DNA of 54,958 nucleotides from Clostridia bacterium (GCA_900753135.1 CAADXZ010000200.1:1-54958), one strand, 5' to 3'. Positions 28,313 to 41,888 are shown, numbered from the stretch's first letter. The notes: generated by a model not told the origin, from the sequence alone. Made by a program: numbers and translations.

Positions 28313-29212
28313 TTAATGTAACAAATTCATAGTTTCAATTAATAATTTAATGTTGTCATATGTACATTTCTTTGTCTCTGAGCAAACGCCTTTTCTCATT
28401 AATGCTTTTTCATCTATGAGCTTTCCTCTCCTTATAAAGAAGAAAATTTTGCCTTCTTTATATATGATAGTAATTTCTTTATTAAGCTTTTTTCTCAATA
28501 TCAATAATTTTTCCATGAATTCTATCGTTAATATTTTTCTAGCTTCTATCTGATTATCAGAATATACCTCAAAATATCTCTCAAACTCAGGATTTTCCAA
28601 TCTGACAGTATTCTTAATTCCAACCATTTTTCTCATTCCAGCAGCGATATGATTTATGTATTTATTATTTATATCTGGATTAATTCTTATAGTAAAATCA
28701 TGAATCTCTTCAGAATCCAATACTCCAAATATTCCATTGAAGAGAATATTTTTATGTACATTACCATCTGAATCTTTATATATCTTTGAAAGAAGTAAAT
28801 CACATATTTGGAAGTTTGTGTGATCTTCAAGTTTTCCACCTATAAAGTTTTTAACATTATATTCATCATACTTATCTATAAAATTAGATTTTCTATATAG
28901 TCCTTGGTATATTCCCCTATTAGGTTTAAAATCAAAATTTGTTATAGTTTTATATAATGAGTTAGTAACATCCTCCTTCAAACATTTAATCAAATAAAAA
29001 TGTTTACTCATTATTTTATATCCCCAAAATTGTATTACAAAAAATGAAATTATTAGTAAAATAGTAATAGGTGCAAAAGTACTATCATAATCCTTCAATG
29101 TTCCATAAAATATAATTGCAGAGAGAATCACAATAAACAAAAGGATACATATCTTTTCTTCTTTTAATAATTTTTTTCTTTTTTCATCTAACTTTCTGCT
29201 TTCTTCGTCCAT
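28313..29212 (-). CDS. LemA-associated membrane protein (DUF3137-like)
   Basis: Two N-terminal TM helices, about 300 aa, immediately downstream of lemA. Confidence 0.5.
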   Translation of the reverse strand: MDEESRKLDEKRKKLLKEEKICILLFIVILSAIIFYGTLKDYDSTFAPITILLIISFFVIQFWGYKIMSKHFYLIKCLKEDVTNSLYKTITNFDFKPNRGIYQGLYRKSNFIDKYDEYNVKNFIGGKLEDHTNFQICDLLLSKIYKDSDGNVHKNILFNGIFGVLDSEEIHDFTIRINPDINNKYINHIAAGMRKMVGIKNTVRLENPEFERYFEVYSDNQIEARKILTIEFMEKLLILRKKLNKEITIIYKEGKIFFFIRRGKLIDEKALMRKGVCSETKKCTYDNIKLLIETMNLLH

Positions 29213-29285
29213 AAAAAACCTCAATTCATATACTTGGTTACTTCGCGATAGTAACTAAAAAATATAACAAAATGTAATTTTTCAA

Positions 29286-29828
29286 TTAGATTTTAAGATT
29301 AATTGCATTTCTAACATCATCATTTACCACGAACAATTTCTTAGACATTTTCTTCATCATTTTTGCCAATATATTTGTTGGAAACGATTGTATTGTTGTA
29401 TTGTATTCTGTAACAGCAGCATTGTACGTTCTTCTTGCCGCTAAAAGCTCATTTTCTATCATAAGTAATTCTTCTTGCAAGGCTAAAAAATTGTGACTAG
29501 CTTTTAAATCAGGATAATTTTCAGCAACAACAAAAACTGATTTTAATGCAGAATTAAACTTATTGTCTGTTTCAACCGCTAGGTTAGCATCAGTAGTATT
29601 CATAGCTTCTGTTCTAATTGATGTAACCTTTTCAAGCACTTCACTTTCATGCTCAAAACTTTTCTTTACTATTTCTACCAAACTTGGTACAATGTCATAC
29701 CTTTTTTTTAAAACAACATCAACAGTAGAAAAAGCATTTTTTACCATATTTTCTTCACTAACTATCTGATTAAAAAATATAATTGCTAAAATTATAATTA
29801 ATACTAAAACTATGATTATTACTGTCAT
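29286..29828 (-). CDS. lemA: LemA family protein
   Basis: N-terminal TM helix; AENYPDLKASHNFLALQEEL...AARRTYNAAV. Confidence 0.9.
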   Translation of the reverse strand: MTVIIIVLVLIIILAIIFFNQIVSEENMVKNAFSTVDVVLKKRYDIVPSLVEIVKKSFEHESEVLEKVTSIRTEAMNTTDANLAVETDNKFNSALKSVFVVAENYPDLKASHNFLALQEELLMIENELLAARRTYNAAVTEYNTTIQSFPTNILAKMMKKMSKKLFVVNDDVRNAINLKI

Positions 29829-29848
29829 GAATGCTCCCCCTATATTTA

Positions 29849-30955
29849 TTATTTTTCATCAAACAAATCTTTAAATAGTCCTCTTTCAATTTGTTTTGCG
29901 AATATACATCTCAAAGCCATTAAAGCAATCGGACCTGCAATTAATCCAAATACACCACCAATCAACTTGTAACCTGCATACATTGCCATAAGAGTAATTA
30001 TAGGATGTATTCCAAATTGATTACTTACAAGCTTTGGCTCTATAAATTGTCTTACACAGAAAATTATTACATAAGTTATAAATATTGCAGCAGCAAATCC
30101 ATAGTTGCCTTCTATTAGCATCCAAACTGCCCATGGATTTAACACTGTTCCAACACCGAGTACTGGTAAAATATCAAGAAGTGCAATTACAAGTGCAAGA
30201 CCAAATGGATATGGCACATCAAATCCAATCCAATTGAATATATTAAATGCTAAGAATAACTCTGTAAAAGTTATCACAATTATTTTCAAATAAACTTTTA
30301 TATATCCACCTATTGAAGCAAAAATCTCATTTAAAACCTTTGTTGTATTTTTAATCCATGCTTTAGGAAAATGGTGTTCTAATAAATCAATTACATAGAT
30401 TCTGTCTTTTGTAAAGAATATAAGTGCAAGAATTGTTATGATTATATTTATTGCAATTGTTGGAATAGATAATAGCATCTTCAAAGACTGTGAAGCAACT
30501 TCACCAATATATGTTCCAAAATTTCCAATAAAATCCACAACAGATTTTTCAACAGCATTTATAACCTGTGGTGAAATATCTGCGTATTCAGCAGTTATGT
30601 TATCTGTCAATACATTTACAAAATCTGTAGCTTTTGTTATTGCTGGTGCAATGTTACTAGTAAGTTTCAATAATTCAGAAATAAGCTCTGTAGTTCCCCA
30701 TACAACAACAAAACCCAAGATTACAATAGTAAGTGTGATAATTATAAAACTACTAACTCTTCTACTCATTTTTAATTTATTCATACAAAATTTAATTACT
30801 GGCTCAATTGCTATTGCAATTATTGCAGCAATTAAAAATGGCATAAAGAAAAATGCAAACTTGCACAATAAAAACAACATCAATAATGTTCCAAGAAATA
30901 TTCCAACCCTACCAATAATTTTAGCTCTTTTACTTTTACTCATATTTTCTTCCAT
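29849..30955 (-). CDS. ytvI: AI-2E/UPF0118 family permease (YtvI-like)
   Basis: Polytopic membrane protein of about 368 aa with AI-2E-like topology and a C-terminal conserved region. Confidence 0.7.
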   Translation of the reverse strand: MEENMSKSKRAKIIGRVGIFLGTLLMLFLLCKFAFFFMPFLIAAIIAIAIEPVIKFCMNKLKMSRRVSSFIIITLTIVILGFVVVWGTTELISELLKLTSNIAPAITKATDFVNVLTDNITAEYADISPQVINAVEKSVVDFIGNFGTYIGEVASQSLKMLLSIPTIAINIIITILALIFFTKDRIYVIDLLEHHFPKAWIKNTTKVLNEIFASIGGYIKVYLKIIVITFTELFLAFNIFNWIGFDVPYPFGLALVIALLDILPVLGVGTVLNPWAVWMLIEGNYGFAAAIFITYVIIFCVRQFIEPKLVSNQFGIHPIITLMAMYAGYKLIGGVFGLIAGPIALMALRCIFAKQIERGLFKDLFDEK

Positions 30956-31044
30956 AATACACCTCTATACGTTAATTATCTAACTACTATTCTTGCATAG
31001 ATTTATGCTAAAATCAAGATATAAGTCCGAATTATAGCATATAA

Positions 31045-31105
31045 ATTCTTTCAATCTTCGAAAGTTTTCGACTAAAAGAAAAAAACTCTCACATAAATTA
31101 AAATC
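31045..31105. repeat. Dispersed structured intergenic repeat, copy 2 (inverted relative to copy 1)
   Basis: Reverse complement aligns with 12067-12130 (GTTTTCGACT..AAAGAA..CTCTC..ATAAATTAAAAT). Confidence 0.7.
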
Positions 31106-31316
31106 TTTTTTATACAATAGGAAAGGAAAAAAATAATGCAAAAAATGTTGTAAAACTTACAGCTCTCCTTATGTATAAAAAGGCAGAAAATCTTTATTTG
31201 ACTATCACTGATAGCATAATCTTTCATTTTCCACCTTTTATTTCTTGATTTTCTAAATAAACAAGAAAACTTATTATTAAAATTAAACTTTTTACATCCA
31301 AAATCGTAATTTTTTA

Positions 31317-31751
31317 TTATATATTCTCCGGTTCTGAAGGTAGAGATATTTCCGTTAAAGTTTCACTTACCTCCATATTAAATTTATCACTTGCTGCAAT
31401 GTCGCCTATAGAAAGCATGCCAATTAATCTTTCGTTTTCTATTACAGGAAGTCTTCTTATTTGTTGCTTTTTCATCAAATCTAAAGCAAAATGAACTTCC
31501 GCATCCGGTTTAACACTATATACTTTATCAGACATTATACTACTTGCAAAAGTTTTATATGGATCAAATTCTTCCTTCGCCATATTTAATACAATATCTC
31601 TATCAGTAACCATACCTAAAACTTGGTCACCATGTGCTACTACTGGAACAGCACCAATATTGTGATGTCGCATCAACTTTGCCACATCAAATACGGTATC
31701 ATTAGTATCAGCTAGCACTAAGTCTTTAGACATTAAATCTTTTACTAACAT
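31317..31751 (-). CDS. CBS-pair domain protein
   Basis: Two CBS motifs; AGGAGG upstream of the ATG at 31751. Confidence 0.85.
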   Translation of the reverse strand: MLVKDLMSKDLVLADTNDTVFDVAKLMRHHNIGAVPVVAHGDQVLGMVTDRDIVLNMAKEEFDPYKTFASSIMSDKVYSVKPDAEVHFALDLMKKQQIRRLPVIENERLIGMLSIGDIAASDKFNMEVSETLTEISLPSEPENI

Positions 31752-31888
31752 TTTTATATTCCTCCTTTTTAGTGATATTGTGTCCCTAAAAAGTAAAAAT
31801 ATTCCACACAAGCAAATATAAAAACCTACTGCATAAATTGAGTTTTCCTACACAATAAAAATGTATTCTCCTTTGATAAACAGCCTTT

Positions 31889-31938
31889 CAATTAAAATAT
31901 GCAAAAGAGTGCTAAATTCTCAGCACTCTTTTGCATAT
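31889..31938 (-). terminator. Strong terminator closing the 36.1-31.9 kb operon
   Basis: 17-bp perfect stem ATATGCAAAAGAGTGCT / AGCACTCTTTTGCATAT with an 8-nt loop, then TTTAAT. Confidence 0.8.
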
Positions 31939-31944
31939 AGGAAG

Positions 31945-32535
31945 TTAAATATACTTTAAAACTTCCCTAGGAGGTAGCCTAGCATCTATTTTCACAATCT
32001 GGACATTGCTTGCTTCAAACAATTGAGTAATACCAATTACTGTTTCTTCAAATTGTTGAAAACGTTTTTCGATTATCTCCGTCGTGTCGTCCTTACGTTT
32101 TACAAGAATAGTATCGCAACAATCACATATTCCAATTCTTTTTGGCTTTTTAAAAGATTTGGAATATACACTCCTACAAGTAGGACAAATCAATCTATCA
32201 GTTGCTCTTTGAATTACTAAATCTTTATCGGCAACAATATAAAATAATTTATCCACCTGTAAATTGTTATTACTTAAAAGTGCCTCTGCTTGTCCAAGAG
32301 TTCTAGGAAAGCCATCAATGATAATATCACTTCTAGAATTAGCAGTAATCGCTTTGTCTATTAATGATATTATTAATTCATCACTTGCCATCGTTCCTGC
32401 TTCGATATCCACTCCTGCATCTTTCAACAACTTACTTGCCGAAATACATTTCATGCCAAGTTTGGTTAACTCTTCAATCCGTGTCCCTTTCCCACTAGCT
32501 GGTGCTCCGATGAAAACAAAAATCTTTCTCTTCAT
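31945..32535 (-). CDS. Divergent adenylate kinase paralogue with Zn lid
   Basis: GAPASGKGT P-loop, DGFPRTLGQAEAL, CPTC...CDCC lid, KRKDD; AAGGAG 8 nt upstream of the ATG at 32535. Confidence 0.75.
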   Translation of the reverse strand: MKRKIFVFIGAPASGKGTRIEELTKLGMKCISASKLLKDAGVDIEAGTMASDELIISLIDKAITANSRSDIIIDGFPRTLGQAEALLSNNNLQVDKLFYIVADKDLVIQRATDRLICPTCRSVYSKSFKKPKRIGICDCCDTILVKRKDDTTEIIEKRFQQFEETVIGITQLFEASNVQIVKIDARLPPREVLKYI

Positions 32536-32571
32536 CTTTCTCACTCCTTATATAATTTTATTTTTAGTATA

Positions 32572-33831
32572 CTAACAATTTTTATGTAAAAAGCAAAAAG
32601 TATCTACTCCATTTATATCTCCATTTAGATAGCATCTATATCTACAGCCACCCCTGCAATGATCATAACTATCACAATTATTGCAAGTTTCATTGCCTTC
32701 AAACTCTCTAAAGTTCTTTAGTATATGACTATTATTCCATATGTCTGTCAATGTGTTTTCCTTTACATTTCCACATATAAATTCATCTGGATAATGAGAA
32801 CATGGTCTAACATTTCCTAACGGATCCACACAAATGCTTTCCTTTCCAGCAAAGCAACCAAAGCCTAATTCTTCTATATATTCATAATCTTCATCACAAT
32901 ATATATTAAGTGGAGCTCTAATTTTTATTAAACCACTATATTTACTTCTTAACCTTTCAATATTTTGTATTGTTTTTATATATTCATCTTGTGATATTAA
33001 AATATTTATTTTATTTGTAATAGCTCTTCCATCTTCTCTAACCGTATTGAACTTTACAGTGTCACACTTATATTTAATTCCTATTCTTATGATATCTTCA
33101 ATTTGATTTATATTATTTTTCATGAGAGTTGTTTTCAAAGAATACTTGCCTTTATAGTACTTCTTTAATAATTCTAAATTATTTGTTACTTTATAAAACG
33201 TTCCGCTCCCTCTTACAAAATCAAAACTTTTTTCATTACCACCGTCAAAACTTATAGTAAGATTGCTTATTTTTAATTCATTAAGTTTGAGAATTACTTT
33301 CTCGTTAAATATCGTACCATTTGTTGTGATAGATACACTTATATTATTTCTATTACATTCTTCAATAAAAAAATATATATCTTCCGAACAAAACGGCTCA
33401 CCACCAGCAATAGAAATCTTCTGTATTCCAAGTTCTTTTATTTGATTTATCAGATTAAATTTTTCTTTTAAAGTCAATTCCAATTTTTTCTGTACTCCAG
33501 ACTCAGTAAAGCAATGCTTACATCTCAAATTACACTTATATGTAATATCATAAAATATTCTAAATGGTGCTGACAGATAATTCTCAGACGCTTTATTATT
33601 AGCATTCTTTATATCAATTTTTACAACACCCAATTTTACTAATTCACGTAACATTTCAAAAATATCGTTTTTATCTAACTCTTGTAATTCTTCAACATTT
33701 TTTTCATATTGGATATCGCTTAGCATTTGTATTAAATTATAAGTTTCTTTATCTATTGCAATGTTTTCTTTGGTATTGTCGTCATATATAATTCCCCCAA
33801 AAAATTCTTTTTTCAATATTAAATTTCCCAT
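32572..33831 (-). CDS. Radical SAM/SPASM maturase-type enzyme with N-terminal RRE(PqqD)-like extension
   Basis: CNLRCKHC; C-terminal CFAGKESICVDPLGNVRPC ... CNNCDSYDHCRGGCRYRC; about 85 aa precede the core. Confidence 0.85.
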   Translation of the reverse strand: MGNLILKKEFFGGIIYDDNTKENIAIDKETYNLIQMLSDIQYEKNVEELQELDKNDIFEMLRELVKLGVVKIDIKNANNKASENYLSAPFRIFYDITYKCNLRCKHCFTESGVQKKLELTLKEKFNLINQIKELGIQKISIAGGEPFCSEDIYFFIEECNRNNISVSITTNGTIFNEKVILKLNELKISNLTISFDGGNEKSFDFVRGSGTFYKVTNNLELLKKYYKGKYSLKTTLMKNNINQIEDIIRIGIKYKCDTVKFNTVREDGRAITNKINILISQDEYIKTIQNIERLRSKYSGLIKIRAPLNIYCDEDYEYIEELGFGCFAGKESICVDPLGNVRPCSHYPDEFICGNVKENTLTDIWNNSHILKNFREFEGNETCNNCDSYDHCRGGCRYRCYLNGDINGVDTFCFLHKNC

Positions 33832-33899
33832 ATATTACTCCTTATTTTAGATAAATCCTATATCTAATACATAATTTATACCTACCTGCTAATTAAATA

Positions 33900-33962
33900 T
33901 TACATGTGTAAATTTTTTAATTTTTTTATATGTTTTTTGTGTACTTTTTTATTTGTTTTCAT
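33900..33962 (-). CDS. Untracked 20-codon ORF MKTNKKVHKKHIKKLKNLHM (candidate precursor peptide)
   Basis: AAAGGAGGAG lies 6 nt upstream of the ATG at 33962 and the TAA stop is at 33900-33902. The ORF sits between the two radical SAM genes. Confidence 0.5.
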   Translation of the reverse strand: MKTNKKVHKKHIKKLKNLHM

Positions 33963-34009
33963 AATCAACTCCTCCTTTCAATCAAAAGTTTATATTAGAT
34001 ATAGTATAA

Positions 34010-34906
34010 TCAATTAATAGTTTTTTTGTCGTATGCTTTATATCTATTTATAGCACACTTCATACAAAATTCGTTTTTATGATCAAACTCTTTTTTTAAT
34101 ATCTTATCTAAACCGCCACTTTTTATATTTCCAAGTAGCAATGCACCTTCTGTAAATGCACAAGGAAATACATCTCCTTTATAATCTATATAAAGAGAAG
34201 TCGTTCCACATAAGCAATTTTGTTTTTGAGTTAAATATTTTTCAACGGGTAATTCTACCTTGCATTTTACTTCTTTCTCTTTACAATACACCAAAATATC
34301 ATCTAGTAATTTCATAAATTCATCAAATGGAATAGGAATATTATTATTTTCTTTCGCTCTTCCAAATAAGTTTGTAGAATTTACCTTCAAGTTCTTAATA
34401 CCAGATTCATCGCAAAAATTAATGATATCAAAAATATCTTCCTTATTATACTTTGATATTGTTGTCCTAACTGAAATTCTATCAATAATTTCTCTATGTC
34501 CAGATAAGGTTTTCAAGTTATTGATTACATATTCTACATTTATCCCTTCTCGCACATTATTTGAATTAATATTTGAAAGTGAATCTAAACTAATTGTTAC
34601 TTTTACATTTTGATTTTCTTGTAAGCATTTAATAATATCATCATTCAAAATTGTTCCATTAGTCGTAATTGATATTTGCATATCCCTGTTATCATTAATA
34701 ATCTCTACAATATCCTTTAAAAAAGGCTCTCCACCACCAATAGAAACTTTATTAATTTTATTTTTTCTTATTTCAATAAACGTTTTTAGAATTTCATCGT
34801 TAGAAAGTTCTGCTTTATCCTTTGTACTACTAGAATTTGTAAAACAATATTTACAATTTGCATTGCACAATTTAGTTATATCAAAAAAAATCTTACTTAT
34901 CATCAT
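34010..34906 (-). CDS. Radical SAM enzyme with partial SPASM/twitch C-terminus
   Basis: CNANCKYC; CLCGTTSLYIDYKGDVFPC ... CMKC; its start overlaps the upstream gene by 14 nt. Confidence 0.85.
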   Translation of the reverse strand: MMISKIFFDITKLCNANCKYCFTNSSSTKDKAELSNDEILKTFIEIRKNKINKVSIGGGEPFLKDIVEIINDNRDMQISITTNGTILNDDIIKCLQENQNVKVTISLDSLSNINSNNVREGINVEYVINNLKTLSGHREIIDRISVRTTISKYNKEDIFDIINFCDESGIKNLKVNSTNLFGRAKENNNIPIPFDEFMKLLDDILVYCKEKEVKCKVELPVEKYLTQKQNCLCGTTSLYIDYKGDVFPCAFTEGALLLGNIKSGGLDKILKKEFDHKNEFCMKCAINRYKAYDKKTIN

Positions 34907-35384
34907 ACTCACCTAATTCATTTAAAATTTCAAATTCAACTCCAATAGTTTCTTGTAAGGCTGTACATTTAGCATTAAAAAGTGAATAATTATTTTTATT
35001 ATTATTTCCAAAACAAGTATTCATAATAACAATCGCAGTTTCAGCTTTGTGTTTTCCAATTCCGGGGAATGAGCACAATCTTCGTTCTATTGTTTCATTG
35101 TTTCCTTTAAAAATATCTTTTACATCGATATAATTTTCTAATACATTCACAACAGAACTATATAAATATATACTCATGCTTTTAGGGAATCTGTGTAAAA
35201 CGGGCTTTACCAGCATCGCACTTTCGATTTTTTCATAAGTTAATAAATTATATGATGTTTCGAAATTCTCTATCAAATTTAATCTATTCATTAATTCTCT
35301 TGTGTTTAACAAAACTTGCATTGCTTTCTGAGACTGATTTAATATTGTAGCCCATAATAAATATAATGCTTGTCTATTATTCAT
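34893..35384 (-). CDS. Short helix-hairpin-helix protein (endonuclease III-like HhH only)
   Basis: FPGIGKHKAETAIVIMNTCFG; GGAG 8 nt upstream of the ATG at 35384; ATGAATAA overlap with the MazG-like stop. Confidence 0.65.
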   Translation of the reverse strand: MNNRQALYLLWATILNQSQKAMQVLLNTRELMNRLNLIENFETSYNLLTYEKIESAMLVKPVLHRFPKSMSIYLYSSVVNVLENYIDVKDIFKGNNETIERRLCSFPGIGKHKAETAIVIMNTCFGNNNKNNYSLFNAKCTALQETIGVEFEILNELGEYDDK

Positions 35385-35736
35385 TATTTTTGCTCCATTT
35401 TCTTTCAATATTTTCTTTCTCTTTGCTTAACACTGCAGAATACAAATCAATATTTAATACATTGCACAATTCTGTAAGCACAATAAAAACATCTGCAACT
35501 TCCTCTTCAATTTCTGTATAATGGCTAATTTTATCTTTATCGATAGTGCCACCCGGTAATTTTTTTCGAATAGCTTTTGCTAATTCACCCGTTTCCTCCA
35601 ATATAAGTAACATTTCATCTTGTATACTTTTGTTTGAAAAACCTCTAAGTTCAATAACATTTTTAATATACTTTTGTAACTCTGGTAAAGTTGTTCTATC
35701 GCTTAATTGTGAGAATAAACTTTTTTGATTATCCAT
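35377..35736 (-). CDS. MazG-like nucleoside triphosphate pyrophosphohydrolase (single domain)
   Basis: EETGELAKAIRK and EEVADVFIVL metal-binding helices; 119 aa; AAAGGAG SD. Confidence 0.8.
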   Translation of the reverse strand: MDNQKSLFSQLSDRTTLPELQKYIKNVIELRGFSNKSIQDEMLLILEETGELAKAIRKKLPGGTIDKDKISHYTEIEEEVADVFIVLTELCNVLNIDLYSAVLSKEKENIERKWSKNNE

Positions 35737-35750
35737 ACAAGTTCTCCTTT

Positions 35751-35948
35751 CTAATAACTTTTAAGATTTTTATTAATAAAATAGGATGCCTTCACACTTG
35801 CATAATTGTGTGAAAACATCCTTAAAAAAGTCAATATTTTTGCAATATATAGAGAGAAAATGAAGGAAAAAAGAGTGAAAGAAACCCTAGTTAAAACATA
35901 TTCGCTAACTACAATATTTGATAATAATTCAATAATTATATCTTTCAT
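35751..35948 (-). CDS. Possible 65-aa single-TM protein or leader ORF (MKDIIIELLSNIVV...)
   Basis: GGGAGGAAG lies 6 nt upstream of the ATG at 35948, but the ORF reads through the terminator hairpin. Confidence 0.35.
   Translation of the reverse strand: MKDIIIELLSNIVVSEYVLTRVSFTLFSFIFSLYIAKILTFLRMFSHNYASVKASYFINKNLKSY
35770..35821 (-). terminator. Leader terminator/attenuator 35 nt upstream of the MazG-like start
   Basis: Minus-strand RNA reads GGAUGUUUUCACAC, a 10-nt loop, GUGUGAAGGCAUCC (14 bp including 2 G-U), then UAUUUUAUU. The G-U pairs would be A-C mismatches on the other strand. Confidence 0.65.
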
Positions 35949-36068
35949 TCTAAACTTCCTCCCAATACTTACTATAGATAAAATAACTCTCATCATTGCA
36001 AGATTTTATATTACTACCTTCAACTGTTACTTTTGATGTTTTGCTTCAGAAGTAATTCTATGTGCAGG

Positions 36069-36097
36069 AATATATCATGAATATTAAATATTGTCAA
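36069..36097 (-). promoter_or_regulatory. Near-consensus sigma-A-type promoter of the operon
   Basis: Minus strand reads TTGACA (36092-36097), 17 nt, TATATT (36069-36074). Confidence 0.6.
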
Positions 36098-36167
36098 CAT
36101 TTTTTTCATACTCCTATTATCAAAACCCAGGCTGTATTAAATTAAATATATTTCTTGTTATACAATA

Positions 36168-36212
36168 AATAGTGAACCAACAAGATTTAAATGTCCTGCC
36201 GGTCCACTATTT
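36168..36212 (-). terminator. Putative ppdK terminator
   Basis: About 11-bp stem AATAGTGAACC / GGTCCACTATT (one mismatch, large loop), then TATTTATTG. Confidence 0.45.
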
Positions 36213-36239
36213 TAATTAGACAAATATTCTCTATGTTAT

Positions 36240-38870
36240 TTATTTTTGTCTTGGATATTTAATTTGAGCTTGAGCAGCTGCAAGTCTAGCTACTGGAACT
36301 CTAAATGGTGAGCAAGATACATAAGTTAAACCAGCTCTGTGACAGAACTCAACAGAAGAAGGATCTCCGCCGTGTTCTCCACAAATACCTAATTTAATAT
36401 CAGGTCTTGTCTTTTTACCAAGTTCAACAGCCATTTTTACTAATTTACCTACACCAACTTGGTCTAGTTTAGCAAATGGGTCGTTTTCATATATCTTCTT
36501 ATCATAGTATGCACCTAAGAATTTACCAGCATCATCTCTTGAGAAACCAAATGTCATTTGTGTTAAGTCATTTGTTCCGAATGAGAAGAATTCAGCTTCT
36601 TTAGCGATTTCATCAGCTGTTAATGCAGCTCTTGGTATCTCTATCATTGTACCAACTTTATACTTCATATCAACACCAGCTTCAGCAATTATCTTATCAG
36701 CTGTTGCACATACTACGTCTTTAACATATTTTAATTCTTTAACTTCACCAACTAATGGAATCATTATTTCAGGTGTAATCATCTTACCAATCTTCTTAGA
36801 AGCATTGATAGCTGCTTTGATAACAGCTTCTGTTTGCATCTCAGCGATTTCTGGGAATGTAACAGCTAGACGGCATCCTCTGTGTCCCATCATTGGGTTG
36901 AATTCGTGAAGACTAGCAATGATTGCTTTAATTTCTTCAACTGTCTTGCCTTGTGTTTTGGCAAGTAATTCAATATCTTTTTCCTCTGTTGGAACGAACT
37001 CGTGTAGAGGAGGATCTAGGAATCTAATTGTTACTTCGTATCCGTCCATTGTTTCAAATAATTGTTCGAAGTCACTTTGTTGCATTGGCTCTAATTTAGC
37101 AAGAGCTGCTTTTCTTTGTTCAACTGTATCAGAACAAATCATTTCTCTGATTGCAGCTATTCTGTCGCCTTCAAAGAACATATGCTCTGTACGGCAAAGA
37201 CCAATACCTTGTGCTCCTAATTCTTTTGCTTTAGCAGCATCTCTTGGAGTATCAGCATTTGTTCTAACTTCTAGAACTCTGTATTTATCTGCCCAGTTCA
37301 TTATTCTTTCGAAGTCTCCGCCTATTGTAGCATCAACTGTTGGAATGATACCAGCATAGATATTACCTGTAGAACCATCAAGTGAGATTTCATCTCCTTC
37401 ATGATATGTTTTACCAGCAAGAGTAAATTTCTTATTTTCTTCATCCATAACGATATCGCCACATCCAGATACGCAGCATTTACCCATACCACGAGCAACA
37501 ACAGCTGCGTGAGATGTTCTACCACCACGAACTGTTAAGATACCTTGAGCAGCTTTCATACCTTCGATATCTTCTGGAGATGTTTCAAGACGAACCAAAA
37601 CAACTTTTTCTTTAGCTCCTCTTACTTTAGCATCTTCAGCTGTGAATACGATTTTACCACAAGCAGCTCCAGGAGAAGCACCTAATGCTTTACCAATTGG
37701 AGTAGCTTCTTTTAATGCTTTAGGATCAAATTGTGGGTGAAGTAATGTATCTAAGTTACGAGGATCAATCATAGCAACTGCTTCTTCCTCTGTTCTCATT
37801 CCTTCATCAACTAAGTCACAAGCAATCTTTAATGAAGCTTGAGCTGTTCTCTTACCGTTACGTGTTTGTAACATATATAATTTACCGTGTTCAACAGTAA
37901 ACTCCATATCTTGCATATCTCTGTAATGAGATTCAAGTTTTTGACAAACATCTTTGAATTGTTCAAATGCTTCTGGGAATTTGTCAGCCATTTCTGTAAT
38001 CTTCATTGGTGTACGAACACCAGCAACAACGTCTTCACCTTGTGCATTTGTTAAGAATTCACCATATAATCCTTTTTCACCAGTAGCTGGGTCACGAGTA
38101 AATGCAACACCAGTACCACAGTCATCTCCCATGTTACCAAATGCCATCATTTGAACGTTAACAGCTGTTCCCCAAGAATAAGGAATATCATTATCTCTTC
38201 TGTATACGTTTGCTCTAGGGTTGTCCCAAGATCTAAATACAGCTTTGATAGCGCCCATTAATTGTTCTGTTGGATCTGTTGGGAATTCAGAACCAATCTT
38301 TTCTTTGTACTCAGCTTTGAATTCTTCAGCTAATTCTTTTAAATCATCAGCTGTAAGTTCAACGTCTTGAGTAACTCCTCTATCAGCTTTCATTTTATCT
38401 ATAAGTTGTTCGAAGTATTTCTTACCAACTTCCATAACTACGTCTGAATACATTTGAATAAATCTTCTGTAACAATCCCAAGCCCAACGTGGGTTACCTG
38501 ATTTTGCTGCAATTGATTCAACAACTTGTTCATTCAAACCTAAGTTAAGAATTGTATCCATCATTCCTGGCATTGATGCTCTTGCACCACTACGTACAGA
38601 AACTAAAAGTGGATTTTCAACATCTCCGAACTTTTTACCTGTAATCTCTTCCATCTTTTTGATGTATTCAAAAATTTGAGCTTGAATTTCATCATTGATT
38701 TTTCTTCCATCTTCGTAATATTGAGTACATGCTTCTGTAGAGATCGTAAAACCCTGTGGAACTGGTAAACCTAACTTTGTCATTTCTGCTAAGTTAGCTC
38801 CTTTTCCTCCAAGAAGTTCTCTCATTGAAGCGTCACCTTCACTAAAAAGATAAACATACTTTTTACTCAT
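36240..38870 (-). CDS. ppdK: Pyruvate, phosphate dikinase
   Basis: 876 aa, GGRTSHAAVVARGMG phospho-His region, CGEHGGDP, PEP-utilising domains. Confidence 0.95.
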   Translation of the reverse strand: MSKKYVYLFSEGDASMRELLGGKGANLAEMTKLGLPVPQGFTISTEACTQYYEDGRKINDEIQAQIFEYIKKMEEITGKKFGDVENPLLVSVRSGARASMPGMMDTILNLGLNEQVVESIAAKSGNPRWAWDCYRRFIQMYSDVVMEVGKKYFEQLIDKMKADRGVTQDVELTADDLKELAEEFKAEYKEKIGSEFPTDPTEQLMGAIKAVFRSWDNPRANVYRRDNDIPYSWGTAVNVQMMAFGNMGDDCGTGVAFTRDPATGEKGLYGEFLTNAQGEDVVAGVRTPMKITEMADKFPEAFEQFKDVCQKLESHYRDMQDMEFTVEHGKLYMLQTRNGKRTAQASLKIACDLVDEGMRTEEEAVAMIDPRNLDTLLHPQFDPKALKEATPIGKALGASPGAACGKIVFTAEDAKVRGAKEKVVLVRLETSPEDIEGMKAAQGILTVRGGRTSHAAVVARGMGKCCVSGCGDIVMDEENKKFTLAGKTYHEGDEISLDGSTGNIYAGIIPTVDATIGGDFERIMNWADKYRVLEVRTNADTPRDAAKAKELGAQGIGLCRTEHMFFEGDRIAAIREMICSDTVEQRKAALAKLEPMQQSDFEQLFETMDGYEVTIRFLDPPLHEFVPTEEKDIELLAKTQGKTVEEIKAIIASLHEFNPMMGHRGCRLAVTFPEIAEMQTEAVIKAAINASKKIGKMITPEIMIPLVGEVKELKYVKDVVCATADKIIAEAGVDMKYKVGTMIEIPRAALTADEIAKEAEFFSFGTNDLTQMTFGFSRDDAGKFLGAYYDKKIYENDPFAKLDQVGVGKLVKMAVELGKKTRPDIKLGICGEHGGDPSSVEFCHRAGLTYVSCSPFRVPVARLAAAQAQIKYPRQK

Positions 38871-38930
38871 TTTATTTCCTCCTTGTTAAATTAATTATTG
38901 TGATGTAAATTTTGTCTATAACACTAGATT

Positions 38931-38959
38931 AATATATACCAGTTTGTCCAAAAAATCAA
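38931..38959 (-). promoter_or_regulatory. Candidate ppdK promoter
   Basis: Minus strand reads TTGATT, 17 nt, TATATT, about 60 nt upstream of the ATG. Confidence 0.4.
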
Positions 38960-39004
38960 CTGTTTTTTGTCCTTTTACTTCTCTATAACATCCTATAAAT
39001 TATG

Positions 39005-39033
39005 TTGACTCTGCATCAAAGATATGTTATCTT
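39005..39033 (+). promoter_or_regulatory. Candidate promoter of the GC-rich element, divergent from ppdK
   Basis: TTGACT (39005-39010), 17 nt including TGT, then TATCTT (39028-39033). Confidence 0.4.
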
Positions 39034-39090
39034 ATTCTTGTAAGAATCTTCCACATCAGACCAACTTTTACATAAAGGAGGTAAAGCTGT

Positions 39091-39252
39091 ATGCCGTGGT
39101 TGCTGCTGATATGTGATTACTCTTTTTGGGAGCTACTGAGGGAATTCCGAAGTATACGCTGCTACGAATCACATTACCAGTGTGAGCTACACAATTACTA
39201 CCGGCGGTCTAGAGACTGCAATGGTGACATACGGCCTAGGTATTGGATTTAA
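39091..39252 (+). other. GC-rich structured element containing a 53-codon ORF (MPWLLLICDYSFWELLREFRSIRCYESHYQCELHNYYRRSRDCNGDIRPRYWI); either an sRNA or a small-protein gene
   Basis: AAAGGAGG lies 9 nt upstream of the ATG at 39091. Codons are rare for this genome (CGG x3, CTG x3, CCG, CGC). Long-range helices: 39089-39103/39218-39232, 39104-39108/39178-39182 and 39111-39118/39167-39174. Confidence 0.4.
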
Positions 39253-39261
39253 CTCAACAAC

Positions 39262-39296
39262 AAAAAAGCTGTTCCTAATTGGAGCAGCTTTTTATT
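39262..39296. terminator. Bidirectional terminator shared by the GC-rich element (+) and the 852-aa gene (-)
   Basis: AAAAGCTGTTCC-TAATT-GGAGCAGCTTTT, with A6 upstream and T-rich sequence downstream. Confidence 0.8.
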
Positions 39297-39329
39297 GTAT
39301 TATAATTGTCATCTTGCTTAATTATGTTA

Positions 39330-41888
39330 CTACGTCGCATCTGTTCCTAATGCTTTTTTACCACATATTGAGCATTTAGTACTTCCATATGGTACCTTAT
39401 GTACACCAGCGTTATTTGTTGCACTACATCTTATACATTGTTTCCAATGTGAAGTCATATTACCAGACCACTTAGAAGACCATTTGTGGCCAAGAGCTGG
39501 ACCGCTAGTTGCACCACATCTAGAGCATTTTTTAGGAGCTGTACATGTCGCAGATCTATAACTATGACCAAGTGCAGTTCCACTGGTAGCACCACACCTT
39601 CTGCACTTTGCCGCTCTTGTACATGTTGCAGAACTAAAACTATGTCCTAGTGCGCCTCCGTTTGTTGCTCCACATCTTGTACATGTTGCTGGCGTTGTAC
39701 ATGTCGCAGCACTATAATTATGTCCTAGTGCCCCTCCTGTTGTTACCCCACATCTTGTACATGTTGCTGGCGTCGTACACGTTGCTGCACTGTAGTTGTG
39801 TCCTAATGCACCTCCTGTTGTTGCACCACACTTTGTACATGTTTTTGGGGTTGTACATGTCGCATCTTTCCAGGTATGTTCACATATTGTTATAGCACTC
39901 TTGTTATTTGTTGAATCAGTGTTATCTACAAATTTTTTTGAATTGTAATTTGCTTTTGTAGCAGAAACCACAACATAAATATATTTTCCTATCATATTCT
40001 TTGGTATAATGTATGTACTAGATGTTGCACCACTTATTGCCGTGCCTCCGCTTGTTGCGTTTTTTGTGCTACTGTACCATTGATATTTTAGTGTGCAACC
40101 TGTTGGAACAATTCCTGATGTATCTGCAGTCAATGTCTTTAAATATACATTGTCTCCAGTTATCTTTATACTTCCACTCATATCTGCGTTTTGTATTCTA
40201 AAACCTACAGTTGTGTTTTGTAATTCATAATTTTCAACCTTTGCTTGTCCTCCTGTTACACTTGATATACTTGCCGAAGATGTATAATTACCAGTATTTA
40301 CCGCTGTTGTCCTTACTAAATTTAATGTTTCACCAGTCACGCCAGAATCTGCAGTAGCAGTTGGTGCCTGTTCACTTCCGTTATATGTGAATAATCTTGT
40401 ATTACCCCAAACAGTAGTTATTTTCTTCTTATCTATTGACCATGTATAACTTATTTCATCATCAGTTCCATTTGCCCATTCATACCTATCTTTGTTAAGT
40501 ATTCTTACAATTGCTGTCTTTGTTCCAACATCTATCATTGTATTATCAGTTATGCCTAAAATTGCACTATCAAAATTATTCAATTGCAATGTTTGTACTT
40601 GACCGTTATATGTATATGTTGGTACAGCAATAGTTGGTTTTGTTAATTTTATCTTTGGTCTAAATATTGCATACAACACCAAATCGTTTTCTGTTCCGAT
40701 ATTATATATTGTCAAACCTTCTGTAGCTGTAATTTTTGTATTCCAGCCTAAAAACTCATAATGTCGTCTACTTGCTTTAGGAGTCAAATCAACAAATGAG
40801 TTACAACCTATTTGTACTGTTGTTTCCGCTATATTGACACTTTCACCGCCATTTGCATCATACTTATATTTTACATTTAGCATAACCCTTATGCTCTTTG
40901 AGGCATTTCCTATTTTTCCAAAACTATTTTTTACCCACACGGTATATACGCCATTTTCTGTCACATTGAATTTTGCCGTATATTTATTAGCAGGTTCTGT
41001 AATATCTACCCAGCTATCTAAAGTTGGTACAACATCTTCACCAACAGTTACAGCATATGAAACAATTTTTGAATTTTTATCCTGTGCAATTACTGTAACA
41101 TCAGCAGTTCCTTGTTTATAATTACATACATATGAAATTATTTTTGGAGAATCTATATCATTGTCATTATCATTCGTACCATTTTCTATTCTTACAACCT
41201 TAGTCGTCGAACTACCGCCTTCTTCATTTGCTATTATTGTGCAACTTTCTTTGCTTTTTACAACATATTCAAAATTTTTTCCATCTGTTGTTGTCGCTTT
41301 TTGACCATCTACCAATACACTTAATATATTTCCACCATATGCTGGTGTAACTTCTATATGTAAATTACCGTCTTTAGTTGATATAACTTGTATTGTTGGC
41401 CCATTTAATCTGGTACTGGTATTATTTTCATCACTTCCATATCCATCAAGATACTTACCATTCTTTGCATAAAATACTTTTAATGAAGCATCATACACAT
41501 AGACATCACTTTCATTAAACGTTATAGTATCACCAGATGATAACTTAGAATAATCCTGACCACTTTTTAATTTCTCATAATCAATTACCGAAAGATCAAC
41601 AACATAACCAGTTGATTCATCCGTATCATAACTTACGAAATTATCTGGTGGATTTTCGACCTTTACCTTTATGAATCCTTTGTTTAACGTATCTTCATCA
41701 ATACCAGACTTGGCATTTATCGAACGAACTACAAGCATTCCTTTCTTCACTTCAGACAACTCTTGCATCATCTTACCATTAGAAGCCTCATCTATTGTAT
41801 TCATTGAATGTAAAGATATTGATGCTAATATGATTATTACTATTATTGTTATAACTAATGATATTAGTGAAACACCCTTTTTATTCAT
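39330..41888 (-). CDS. 852-aa surface protein: pilin-like N-terminus, Listeria-Bacteroides-type repeat, Ig-like region, C-terminal Cys/His repeats
   Basis: MNKKGVSLISLVITIIVIIIL; YDANGGES...YEFLGWN; five 26-aa H-x6-C-x5-C-x2-C units. Confidence 0.85.
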   Translation of the reverse strand: MNKKGVSLISLVITIIVIIILASISLHSMNTIDEASNGKMMQELSEVKKGMLVVRSINAKSGIDEDTLNKGFIKVKVENPPDNFVSYDTDESTGYVVDLSVIDYEKLKSGQDYSKLSSGDTITFNESDVYVYDASLKVFYAKNGKYLDGYGSDENNTSTRLNGPTIQVISTKDGNLHIEVTPAYGGNILSVLVDGQKATTTDGKNFEYVVKSKESCTIIANEEGGSSTTKVVRIENGTNDNDNDIDSPKIISYVCNYKQGTADVTVIAQDKNSKIVSYAVTVGEDVVPTLDSWVDITEPANKYTAKFNVTENGVYTVWVKNSFGKIGNASKSIRVMLNVKYKYDANGGESVNIAETTVQIGCNSFVDLTPKASRRHYEFLGWNTKITATEGLTIYNIGTENDLVLYAIFRPKIKLTKPTIAVPTYTYNGQVQTLQLNNFDSAILGITDNTMIDVGTKTAIVRILNKDRYEWANGTDDEISYTWSIDKKKITTVWGNTRLFTYNGSEQAPTATADSGVTGETLNLVRTTAVNTGNYTSSASISSVTGGQAKVENYELQNTTVGFRIQNADMSGSIKITGDNVYLKTLTADTSGIVPTGCTLKYQWYSSTKNATSGGTAISGATSSTYIIPKNMIGKYIYVVVSATKANYNSKKFVDNTDSTNNKSAITICEHTWKDATCTTPKTCTKCGATTGGALGHNYSAATCTTPATCTRCGVTTGGALGHNYSAATCTTPATCTRCGATNGGALGHSFSSATCTRAAKCRRCGATSGTALGHSYRSATCTAPKKCSRCGATSGPALGHKWSSKWSGNMTSHWKQCIRCSATNNAGVHKVPYGSTKCSICGKKALGTDAT
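39333..39884 (-). repeat. In-frame 78-nt tandem repeats encoding ALGH(N/S)(Y/F)S(A/S)ATCTxxxxCxRCGxTxGx units
   Basis: Five units plus a degenerate sixth. Units 2 and 3 are nearly identical in protein but differ at synonymous sites. Confidence 0.85.

Follow-up and report, generated by a model that had tools for sequence, protein, structure and literature searches.

The stretch of DNA analysed here, 54,958 nucleotides (nt) of a Clostridia bacterium (GCA_900753135.1, CAADXZ010000200.1:1-54958; hereafter the window), carries on its minus strand a single compact transcription unit, from 36097 to 31897, in which seven open reading frames (ORFs) follow each other with short or overlapping junctions. 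Two of the genes encode radical S-adenosylmethionine (SAM) enzymes, here called rSAM-A and rSAM-B. Between them lies a gene of 20 codons, and the same unit encodes a MazG-type nucleoside triphosphate (NTP) pyrophosphohydrolase, a helix-hairpin-helix (HhH) protein and a paralogue of adenylate kinase. A preliminary description of this DNA had proposed that the operon serves either a peptide made on the ribosome and modified after translation (RiPP) with a nucleotide-derived modification or a modified-nucleotide pathway. The operon is real and that interpretation is supported, with the balance shifted toward the peptide. The features, with lengths in amino acids (aa), are as follows.

36069-36097, minus strand: promoter of the sigma-70 type, TTGACA-17-TATATT with a TG-extended -10; 11 of 12 positions match, and it is the top site of a 7-kb scan
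35751-35996, minus strand: hydrophobic transmembrane ORF; the first ATG gives 81 aa, and the ATG at 35948, behind GGGAGG, gives 65 aa
35377-35736, minus strand: MazG-type all-alpha NTP pyrophosphohydrolase, 119 aa
34893-35384, minus strand: protein with a predicted HhH-GPD fold, 163 aa
34010-34906 or 34912, minus strand: rSAM-B, a radical-SAM enzyme with a domain for one auxiliary cluster (twitch/partial SPASM), 298 or 300 aa
33991-34007, minus strand: 5' arm of an inverted repeat enclosing the precursor gene, paired with 33855-33871 in the minimum-energy fold
33900-33962, minus strand: precursor peptide gene, 20 codons and a stop, MKTNKKVHKKHIKKLKNLHM, with GGAGGAG 7 nt upstream
33855-33871, minus strand: 3' arm of the inverted repeat, paired with 33991-34007
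32572-33831, minus strand: rSAM-A, with a predicted RiPP recognition element (RRE), a radical-SAM core (CNLRCKHC) and a seven-Cys SPASM domain, 419 aa
31945-32535, minus strand: Zn-lid adenylate-kinase paralogue, the last gene of the operon, 196 aa
31897-31938, minus strand: intrinsic terminator, whose stem of 19 pairs (6 of them G-C) has a loop of 4 and is followed by a T-rich tail

The promoter, the terminator and the seven ORFs had all been part of the preliminary description, and all are present. The first ORF lies about 70 nt downstream of the promoter, and the terminator hairpin starts 7 nt past the stop codon of the kinase gene. The ATG of the HhH gene overlaps the MazG stop codon by 8 nt, in ATGAATAA, and the coding regions of HhH and rSAM-B overlap by 14 nt, as first reported; both junctions look as if they were translationally coupled. 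Scans of all operon proteins against Pfam, NCBIfam, PADLOC and PHROGs gave matches at the superfamily level only, and the cut-off of a specific curated family was not reached in any of the four.

The 20-codon ORF was followed in loci fetched around homologues of the 419-aa enzyme, from homologue-encoding contigs, species-representative genomes and metagenomes. In nearly every locus that covers the relevant DNA, a short ORF preceded by a Shine-Dalgarno sequence adjoins rSAM-A or rSAM-B. The distinct peptides so encoded, about 32 in Firmicutes, Fusobacterium, Proteobacteria, one actinomycete and one myxobacterium, all have His as the penultimate residue (endings …LHM, …FHH, …SHN). The peptide of the window has 20 aa, is rich in Lys and ends LHM. 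Other Firmicute and Fusobacterium precursors are MKKNNKKTVKKHIKKLKNLHM, MKKAQTTKKHIKVLSNLHM, MKNASKKHIKSLGDLHM, MKQRIKKLSELHM, MCKIKPLDELHM and MKKNSKKNKHFKNISDLHM; a third clade has MKKTDNSKKKKRIFKISNLHM, MKRSKKRRFYRLSDLHM, MKKVKKSKRIRKLCMCHM and MKSVKNKKRFFKVSTSHN; and those of Proteobacteria, the actinomycete and the myxobacterium have 25-54 aa and end …KKRIFKVSTFHH, with the variants …RIFKISTMHH, …RRFFKVRTDHH and …RVFRVSTVHH. Distant loci had yielded no precursor ending in HM, and a widened search recovered the -HH and -HN endings as well as precursors placed after rSAM-B. The pattern common to all is a basic run, [IVF]-x-[KR]-[VLI], three variable positions, the invariant His and a last residue that is Met, His or Asn; conservation is focused on the C-terminal end, and the N-terminal part can be as short as 2 residues or as long as about 40. 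Relatives of the window peptide have in common a basic and hydrophobic segment, [K/R]-[H/R]-I-x-K-[L/V/I], ahead of the C-terminal tripeptide that contains the His. Between loci, the Leu and His codons in front of the stop are exchanged for synonymous ones (TTA, CTA, TTG or CTC; CAC or CAT) and the residues are retained, which is the signature of a translated and selected peptide. Judging from these sequences, the 20-codon ORF is a real, conserved precursor gene, and no NCBIfam model matches the precursor peptides.

The precursor ORF and its ribosome-binding site are enclosed by a long-range inverted repeat. Its 16 pairs, found both by a direct search for arms and by folding the window sequence, were equalled by 2 of 100 shuffles. 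Of 11 Firmicute loci, 9 have the same architecture, L005-L012 among them, and the arms come in three different sequences: they are mostly CCTATATCTA/TAGATATAGG, compensatory changes give CCCGCATCTA/TAGATGCGGG in locus L010, and an unrelated stem of 23 pairs occupies the position in L009. The repeat is missing from L001 and L003, and in several single loci, the DNA being AT-rich, the stem is weak relative to shuffles. RNAalifold predicted no pairs from the raw intergenic alignment, because MAFFT could not align the divergent spacers. The arrangement suggests an RNA stem that could delimit or stabilize a precursor mini-transcript.

Both radical-SAM assignments of the preliminary description are borne out. 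rSAM-A scores 80.4 bits on PF04055 (Radical_SAM) and 49.3 bits on PF13186 (SPASM, cut-off 21.5). C100, C104 and C107 of its CNLRCKHC motif are invariant in 19 homologues, and its SPASM domain has seven invariant Cys (C326, C344, C383, C386, C392, C396 and C413), for two auxiliary clusters. The RRE-like N-terminus had been proposed as well. An AlphaFold2 model (pLDDT 88) gives strands at 4-9, 12-17 and 22-27 and helices at 28-37, 42-49 and 54-67, so that residues 4-67 are predicted to have the RRE topology of three strands followed by three helices; Pfam PqqD does not match there. By Foldseek, SuiB is the best structural match (TM-score 0.74 over about 440 aligned columns, the full length), then SkfB, CteB, PqqE and anSME. 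rSAM-A and its precursor show every hallmark of RRE-dependent radical-SAM/SPASM RiPP maturases that sequence and structure can test, and the cassette appears to belong to this broad class. Characterized families are another matter: the NCBIfam scores of rSAM-A are 159.5 bits for NirJ2 (500 needed), 157.9 for MftC (265), 135.9 for PqqE (381) and 130.9 for AhbD (500).

rSAM-B (PF04055, 78 bits; partial SPASM, 30.8 bits) is orthologous in all clades, with C16, C20 and C23 and the C-terminal C233, C251, C283 and C286 invariant; the four C-terminal Cys are predicted to suffice for one auxiliary cluster. The window enzyme begins right at the cluster motif, and the Proteobacterial rSAM-B has an extra, RRE-like N-terminal domain of the EFFGG type. 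Since this domain resembles that of rSAM-A, both enzymes are best read as peptide-modifying. The conserved precursor with its invariant penultimate His, and RRE-like domains in both Proteobacterial radical-SAM enzymes, strengthen the RiPP option. Neither enzyme reaches an NCBIfam equivalog cut-off; a place in well-characterized families, which the preliminary description had named as a ground for refutation, did not come to light.

The MazG call also held (PF03819, 29.6 bits, cut-off 22). The motifs EExGE, ExxD and KExxNxxRxW are kept, with E47, E48, E51, E79, D82, K105, E106, N109 and R112 present in at least 21 of 23 orthologues, and since its catalytic motifs are intact, the protein should be an active NTP pyrophosphohydrolase. 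Its sequence relatives in the PDB include YpjD, DCTPP1 and MazZ.

The HhH protein has no Pfam match, PF00730 included, and no sequence match in the PDB, and it scores 32 bits on TIGR03252 (cut-off 136.5). Its AlphaFold2 model (pLDDT 88.5) has HhH-GPD DNA glycosylases as all of its top 46 Foldseek matches in the PDB, with MagIII, EndoIII, OGG1 and AlkA at probabilities up to 1.00, TM-scores near 0.5 and E 0.04. The GIGxHK hairpin is conserved in the family, and N16, R34, P61, H64-R65-F66, G108 and H112-K113 are kept in at least 25 of 27 orthologues, across all clades. In the 27-35 sequences compared, no conserved Asp follows the hairpin, the canonical site being about 20 residues on, in a Gly/Pro…Asp loop; beyond the hairpin the sequence varies, and the model is poor there, with pLDDT below 50 at residues 128-131. 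The hairpin and the missing catalytic Asp had both been recognized in the preliminary description, but the protein is not truncated, as had been supposed: the model describes a complete, compact HhH-GPD fold without the catalytic Asp, and 163 aa is the family length (72 sequence clusters, typically 163-172 aa). A profile search of 1.8 billion representative proteins returned 356 relatives. Remote relatives score on Pfam PF00730 and are fused to DNA-related domains (HhH-GPD-scoring, methyltransferase, helix-turn-helix [HTH]).

The kinase scores 73.9 bits on PF00406 (ADK) and 37.5 bits on PF05191 (ADK_lid) and has the motifs GAPASGKGT, GFPRT and CPTC…CDCC. It is taken as a paralogue because its score on TIGR01351, 137.1 bits, is under the cut-off of 168; the other Adk equivalog models are far below their cut-offs. 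Its family is separate: members of 193-196 aa are 45-100% identical to the window protein, and ordinary ADKs 31-36%. The earlier reading of a divergent Zn-lid paralogue thus stands, whereas universal membership in the cassette does not, since the gene is replaced or absent in relatives. Three types of kinase interchange at one position, namely the ADK paralogue, a dTMP-kinase-like protein in most relatives (84.7 bits, cut-off 83.25) and AAA_28. The match list of the ADK paralogue shares four contig sizes (15243, 2136, 10111 and 5278) with the rSAM-A and HhH lists, which suggests that it lies in the cassette on those contigs too.

The ADK paralogue family also closes a different operon that lacks an obvious precursor peptide (L127-L130, gene 7001-7585 in each), with proteins 45-52% identical to that of the window and the same C-terminal …LPP.E.LKYI. 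This operon encodes a B12-binding radical-SAM protein (420 aa), an Asn-synthase/QueC-like PP-loop ATPase with a Zn ribbon (321 aa), a NUDIX-like protein (196 aa) and an NT5C/HAD nucleotidase. It looks like a separate, uncharacterized nucleotide-tailoring pathway, and the place of the kinase family at its end suggests that the ADK serves radical-SAM nucleotide tailoring.

Linkage was assessed in 38 loci, whose ORFs of 70 aa or more were clustered unlabelled before hidden Markov models of the families were applied. Radical-SAM genes, mostly two per locus, are present in all 38 loci, HhH in 27, MazG (two subfamilies) in about 27, the dTMP-kinase-like P-loop kinase in 20 and the ADK-type kinase in 2; most of the absences fall at contig ends. 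Co-localization in relatives had been named as one of two points on which the preliminary description would stand or fall, and MazG, HhH, both radical-SAM genes and the short ORF are found together from Firmicutes to the myxobacterium. The order MazG-HhH-rSAM-B-peptide-rSAM-A-kinase of the window type becomes rSAM-A-Tmk-rSAM-B-peptide-HhH-MazG in Clostridiaceae bacterium M8S5 and peptide-rSAM-A-rSAM-B-…-Tmk-HhH-MazG in the actinomycete and myxobacterial loci, and a Rhizobium plasmid has the cassette as two divergent operons. All loci of the HhH family that were examined lie in the cassette, and several more HhH matches agree with rSAM-A matches in contig size. Recurrence of the gene set in dozens of loci across groups is more than chance, and linkage that persists across groups while the gene order is shuffled is strong evidence of a common function; chance adjacency was set aside on this ground. 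Single loci add further nucleotide enzymes: an ASCH-NUDIX protein at the kinase position (L007), deoxyribosyltransferase-like proteins (L045, L046), a protein resembling uracil-DNA glycosylase (UDG), accompanied by a second Tmk (L046), and CYTH, which has ABC exporters as neighbours (L003, L004). The closest relatives in genome collections, at 61-67% identity, belong to uncultured gut Clostridia and Eubacteriales.

The cassette is a mobile, accessory trait that moves horizontally. In Fusobacterium (L001 1-5000 and 10000-17275) it lies amid VirB4/TrbL/MobA, type-IV-secretion and relaxase genes; one Firmicute locus has it beside TraG and an AgrB/LytTR module; and in Rhizobium and Bradyrhizobium it adjoins MobA/TraD genes. 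Rhizobium sp. T1473 (L131) carries it on a conjugative plasmid beside IS66 and IS701 elements, and the annotation of this plasmid reads "radical SAM protein", "dTMP kinase", "pyrophosphatase" and "hypothetical protein" only. In a very common lineage of human-gut Clostridia it stands at different chromosomal sites between identical copies of an insertion sequence (IS) with an rve domain (3919-5142 and 9324-10547 in L133), and a frameshift appears to break rSAM-A in two. In an assembly collection, 148 blocks index one HhH variant, and a Fusobacterium variant of rSAM-A occurs on 117 contigs. A phage origin is unsupported, since viral contigs and phage genomes hold no relatives of the cassette.

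Decay takes the form of internal deletions or of a frameshifted rSAM-A beside retained MazG and HhH genes. In the abundant human-gut lineage, the two overlapping ORFs of rSAM-A encode the RRE with the radical-SAM core (about 220 aa) and the SPASM domain (about 220 aa), at L011 6001-7282, L012 5995-7276, L133 7620-8901 and L134 6835-8116. The split point is about the same in independent assemblies, and the gene may be either a fixed frameshift, that is a pseudogene, or a two-piece enzyme. Three metagenomic proteins (P0087, P0181 and P0182) join the N-terminal 50-85 residues of HhH to internal parts of rSAM-A, in P0087 at a common INEKY/LNEKY microhomology; they look like products of cassette decay by internal deletion of rSAM-B and the precursor.

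Measured against known systems, the cassette is not a member of the mycofactocin, pyrroloquinoline quinone (PQQ), streptide, sactipeptide, viperin, microcin C or thymidine-hypermodification groups, each of which has at least one defining feature that it lacks. The closest comparison by sequence is with mycofactocin. The substrate of its radical-SAM/SPASM enzyme, MftC, is a short ribosomal peptide, MftA, and the site of action is the extreme C-terminus, as predicted for the cassette; precursor conservation is likewise concentrated C-terminally. Among characterized families MftC (TIGR03962) is the best or second-best match of rSAM-A by score in both clades (157.9 bits, and 161.3 bits for the Proteobacterial orthologue) and the next-best match among plasmids; both scores are, however, far below the 265-bit cut-off. 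The cassette precursor ends in x-H-(M/H/N) where MftA ends in G-V-Y, and the RRE is fused to the enzyme where mycofactocin has a separate MftB. The cassette lacks mftD, mftE, mftF and the dehydrogenase partners, adds a second radical-SAM enzyme, MazG, HhH and a kinase, and sits on mobile elements. SuiB/StrB (streptide), CteB and SkfB share the RRE-radical-SAM-SPASM architecture and the short precursor gene beside the enzyme, but their identity is just 16-22% and their systems have no nucleotide enzymes. The window precursor has neither Trp nor Cys, so that neither a Lys-Trp cross-link nor a sactionine bond is possible.

Microcin C (MccA/MccB) and its type are, to our knowledge, the only established class of ribosomal peptide-nucleotide conjugates. 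The likeness lies in the pairing of nucleotide chemistry with a ribosomal precursor that is very short and in many cases encoded on a plasmid. Unlike microcin C, in which radical-SAM enzymes play no part, no cassette locus encodes a ThiF/MccB-like adenylyltransferase, and the precursors do not end in Asn, except in L004; that of the window ends in Met. Reviews of peptide-nucleotide antibiotics are available (PMC8183687, PMC12250964). In phage thymidine hypermodification, a 5-hydroxymethyldeoxyuridine (5-hmdU) DNA kinase, an amino acid:DNA transferase (ADDT/aGPT-Pplase) and a radical-SAM isomerase join amino acids to a nucleobase (PMC8989533). The cassette resembles this system in combining a P-loop kinase, a glycosylase-fold protein and a radical-SAM enzyme. 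It differs in that its kinase is similar to the 5-hmdU DNA kinase at the P-loop level only, it has no hydroxymethylase, it is not found in phage collections, and its partner is a ribosomal peptide. Identity of HhH with ADDT/aGPT-Pplase2 (PF18724) was rejected: hhalign against phage M6 gp51 gave a probability of 0.3%, and there is no Pfam match. In a viral fold search of HhH, ADDT and Pplase1 came up at probabilities of just 0.13-0.15, and canonical glycosylases match better. Microcin C and thymidine hypermodification may resemble the cassette in mode of working; the proteins are unrelated. Prokaryotic viperins (pVips), finally, also place a radical-SAM enzyme beside a nucleoside monophosphate (NMP) kinase, often in mobile or defence contexts. 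In PADLOC-DB 2.0, one of the screens proposed earlier, both radical-SAM proteins match pVip models (E about 1e-20), including "viperins associated with kinases", MazG, HhH and the transmembrane ORF have no match and the kinase has a marginal LmuB match. The matches are generic, at the level of the radical-SAM core; viperins lack a SPASM or twitch domain, an RRE and a precursor peptide, whereas both cassette enzymes have auxiliary-cluster domains, and rSAM-B scores 62.7 bits on the NCBIfam viperin model NF038283 (cut-off 180). The preliminary description knew of no pathway with this composition, and none was found in the full-text literature on radical-SAM/SPASM/RiPP systems with nucleotide enzymes or in the family libraries searched.

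The most likely explanation, one that we hold at a little short of even confidence, is a new RiPP-type pathway acting on a C-terminal His tripeptide, with the nucleotide enzymes as integral members. In this scheme, the RRE of rSAM-A would bind the basic and hydrophobic segment of the precursor. rSAM-A, with two auxiliary clusters, and rSAM-B, with one, would then account for two radical steps at the last three residues, with the invariant His at the centre. MftC, the closest characterized enzyme by sequence, decarboxylates the last two residues of MftA and cross-links them; by analogy, the two steps would be a cross-link to the His and/or an oxidative decarboxylation of the C-terminus. MazG would turn an NTP into an NMP-level species, the NMP kinase (here the ADK paralogue) would re-phosphorylate a nucleotide-like intermediate, and the Asp-less HhH-GPD fold may serve as a pocket for a flipped-out base or base-like group. 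The most likely outcome would be a nucleotide on, or built around, the His imidazole, for example by addition of a carbon-centred radical to the imidazole. We consider it possible, though on the doubtful side, that the product is a true peptide-nucleotide conjugate, and we are equally tentative about the linkage, in which a nucleotide is joined through the invariant His, or the His is rebuilt into a base-like heterocycle and the nucleotide enzymes process the product like a nucleotide. The product could either be exported and act as an antagonist or stay inside the cell as an effector from which the mobile element benefits.

Several points weigh against this explanation. Both the peptide modification and the nucleotide adduct are so far predictions from sequence. 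There is no enzyme of a class known for linking nucleotides with peptides (ThiF/MccB-like or nucleotidyltransferase), and NTP_transf_5 is found in just 7 loci. A protease is missing from the operon, as is a dedicated exporter from the whole window. MazG and the kinase oppose each other if they share one compound. An HhH gene was not detected in three gammaproteobacterial loci, one of which has just rSAM-A and the precursor, and the nearest Clostridia relatives (L005-L008, L011 and L012) lack any kinase. DNA glycosylases and house-cleaning NTPases also fit the self-protection of a producer of a DNA- or nucleotide-directed toxin.

This last point leads to the alternative that carries most weight, although we think it unlikely: the precursor and the two radical-SAM enzymes would make a strongly cationic antagonistic peptide directed at DNA or nucleotide metabolism, with MazG, HhH and the kinase as immunity functions that accompany the biosynthetic genes on mobile elements. 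MazG would clean up damaged or analogue NTPs, HhH would recognize or repair lesions, and the kinase would inactivate or recycle the compound. DNA glycosylases are known as self-resistance genes of genotoxin clusters, as in YtkR2 (yatakemycin) and AlkZ (azinomycin). The predicted glycosylase fold of HhH, the DNA-related fusions of its remote relatives and the dispensability of the kinase in the nearest relatives agree with such a role, as do ABC exporters adjoining the cassette in L003, L004 and L044 and its location on plasmids, on conjugative elements or between IS copies, which is typical of bacteriocin-plus-immunity modules. The HhH-GPD catalytic Asp is, however, missing family-wide, and MazG and HhH appear to be coupled translationally to rSAM-B and not to any exporter; many loci, that of the window included, have no exporter in the operon at all. 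Moreover, the cassette decays as a whole, which gives no sign of the immunity genes systematically outliving the toxin genes. The lack of an exporter in the window operon would suit a peptide-derived small molecule or cofactor of the mycofactocin or PQQ style. Here the last two to three residues would be cross-linked, released from the peptide by a protease whose gene lies outside the operon, and given a nucleotide handle, for which flavin adenine dinucleotide, F420 and molybdopterin guanine dinucleotide are models. MftC and PqqE are among the top-scoring characterized families, and conservation of the peptide is concentrated at its C-terminal end. We nevertheless judge this improbable: the neighbourhoods contain no conserved oxidoreductase partner or peptidase, a mobile location and frequent pseudogenization are unlike a cofactor pathway, and the cut-offs of MftC, PqqE and NirJ are widely missed.

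A pathway for a modified nucleotide, whether viperin-like and antiviral or for nucleic-acid modification, would have MazG and the kinase supply an NTP or NMP as substrate to one or both of the radical-SAM enzymes, and the peptide, instead of being the substrate, serve as scaffold, activator or regulator. MazG next to an NMP kinase is reminiscent of the phage pathways for modified deoxynucleoside triphosphates (T4 dCTPase, hydroxymethylase and deoxynucleoside monophosphate kinase), and MazZ is among the PDB relatives of MazG. The radical-SAM enzymes match pVip models generically, together with viperin and MoaA structures, and the ADK paralogue recurs in the peptide-less radical-SAM operon described above. 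A P-loop kinase, an HhH transferase of the glycosylase fold and a radical-SAM enzyme make up, moreover, the trio that is the signature of thymidine hypermodification (PMC8989533). Against this stand the predicted RRE-like, peptide-binding domains in both radical-SAM families, the viperin score (62.7 versus 180 bits), the lack of relatives in phage genomes and viral contigs, the unrelatedness of the HhH family to amino acid:DNA transferases in profile comparison (0.3%) and the lack of a hydroxymethylase or other base-activating enzyme. The option in its pure form, which the preliminary description had left on an equal footing, is thereby weakened, and we rate it marginally below the cofactor in probability. 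MazG, kinases and glycosylases are common genes, and the kinase is variable in type and at times absent, as might be expected if a RiPP module merely lay beside an unrelated module of nucleotide housekeeping. Such chance neighbourhood is effectively refuted already, and we give it hardly any weight: the genes are found together, in at least four gene orders, in Firmicutes, Fusobacterium and Proteobacteria as well as in an actinomycete and a myxobacterium, coding regions overlap, and every HhH-family locus examined lies in the cassette.

If the nucleotide-linked RiPP pathway is correct, it would define a new RiPP family, with a short ORF ending in H-(M/H/N) beside an RRE-SPASM enzyme as the search rule, and would add to the radical reactions known for histidine. 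Radical-SAM peptide maturation wired to nucleotide metabolism may have its first case here, and the pathway would open a second route to hybrids of ribosomal peptides and nucleotides, with a mechanism unrelated to that of microcin C, carried by the conjugative elements of gut, oral and soil bacteria. Human-associated bacteria commonly have the cassette, which is also mobile, so in the gut and mouth its product probably has a role in competition, defence or plasmid biology. The cassette also offers a handle on the function of three orphan families: the Asp-less HhH-GPD proteins, the MazG subfamily and the short ADK paralogue.

The first ORF of the operon does not share in this conservation. The 65-codon transmembrane ORF of the preliminary description exists, with 81 aa from the first ATG, but its place in the cassette did not hold. 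It has no match in Pfam, NCBIfam or PADLOC and no counterpart in the ORF clustering of the 38 loci, and its position in relatives is taken by an XRE-type HTH gene or other genes. It is lineage-specific and, for lack of conservation, is not counted as part of the cassette. G+C content is about 0.25 inside the transcription unit and about 0.30 around it. It is 0.25 across both radical-SAM genes (33001-35000), versus about 0.29-0.34 in the flanking 10 kb, which fits acquisition from outside; in the neighbouring pyruvate phosphate dikinase gene it is 0.38. An Rfam scan of 29000-39500 gave no match.

Downstream of the cassette, the window encodes a CBS-pair protein and a permease of the AI-2E/PerM family (29849-30955 and 31317-31811), and the same two genes lie downstream of it in the syntenic locus L007 (9025-10640). 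Clostridiaceae bacterium M8S5, in which the cassette is rearranged, has a permease of the same ORF cluster at a distance of about 6 kb from it (L004 996-2150). The permease may be a candidate exporter or plain synteny.

The surroundings differ among groups. Proteobacterial, actinomycete and myxobacterial loci add a tetratricopeptide-repeat protein of about 225-250 aa and a protein of about 300 aa without a family, both missing in Firmicutes (L014 4619-6329, L045 4448-6106 and L131 4943-6687). In L046 (9545-14382), rSAM-A, rSAM-B and the precursor are followed by an HhH-family protein, two Tmk-like kinases, a large methyltransferase and UDG-like and nucleoside-2-deoxyribosyltransferase-like proteins, with weak Pfam matches. 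In one Firmicute sub-lineage (L003 5317-6107 and 9982-17254; also L051, L053 and L061), a 48-aa ORF, AgrB and a LytTR two-component system lie upstream of the cassette, and downstream of it come NTP_transf_5, a 377-aa unknown protein, a PP-binding carrier, BtrH_N, CYTH and an ABC-2 exporter. Surroundings of this type may form an extended biosynthetic or regulatory neighbourhood.

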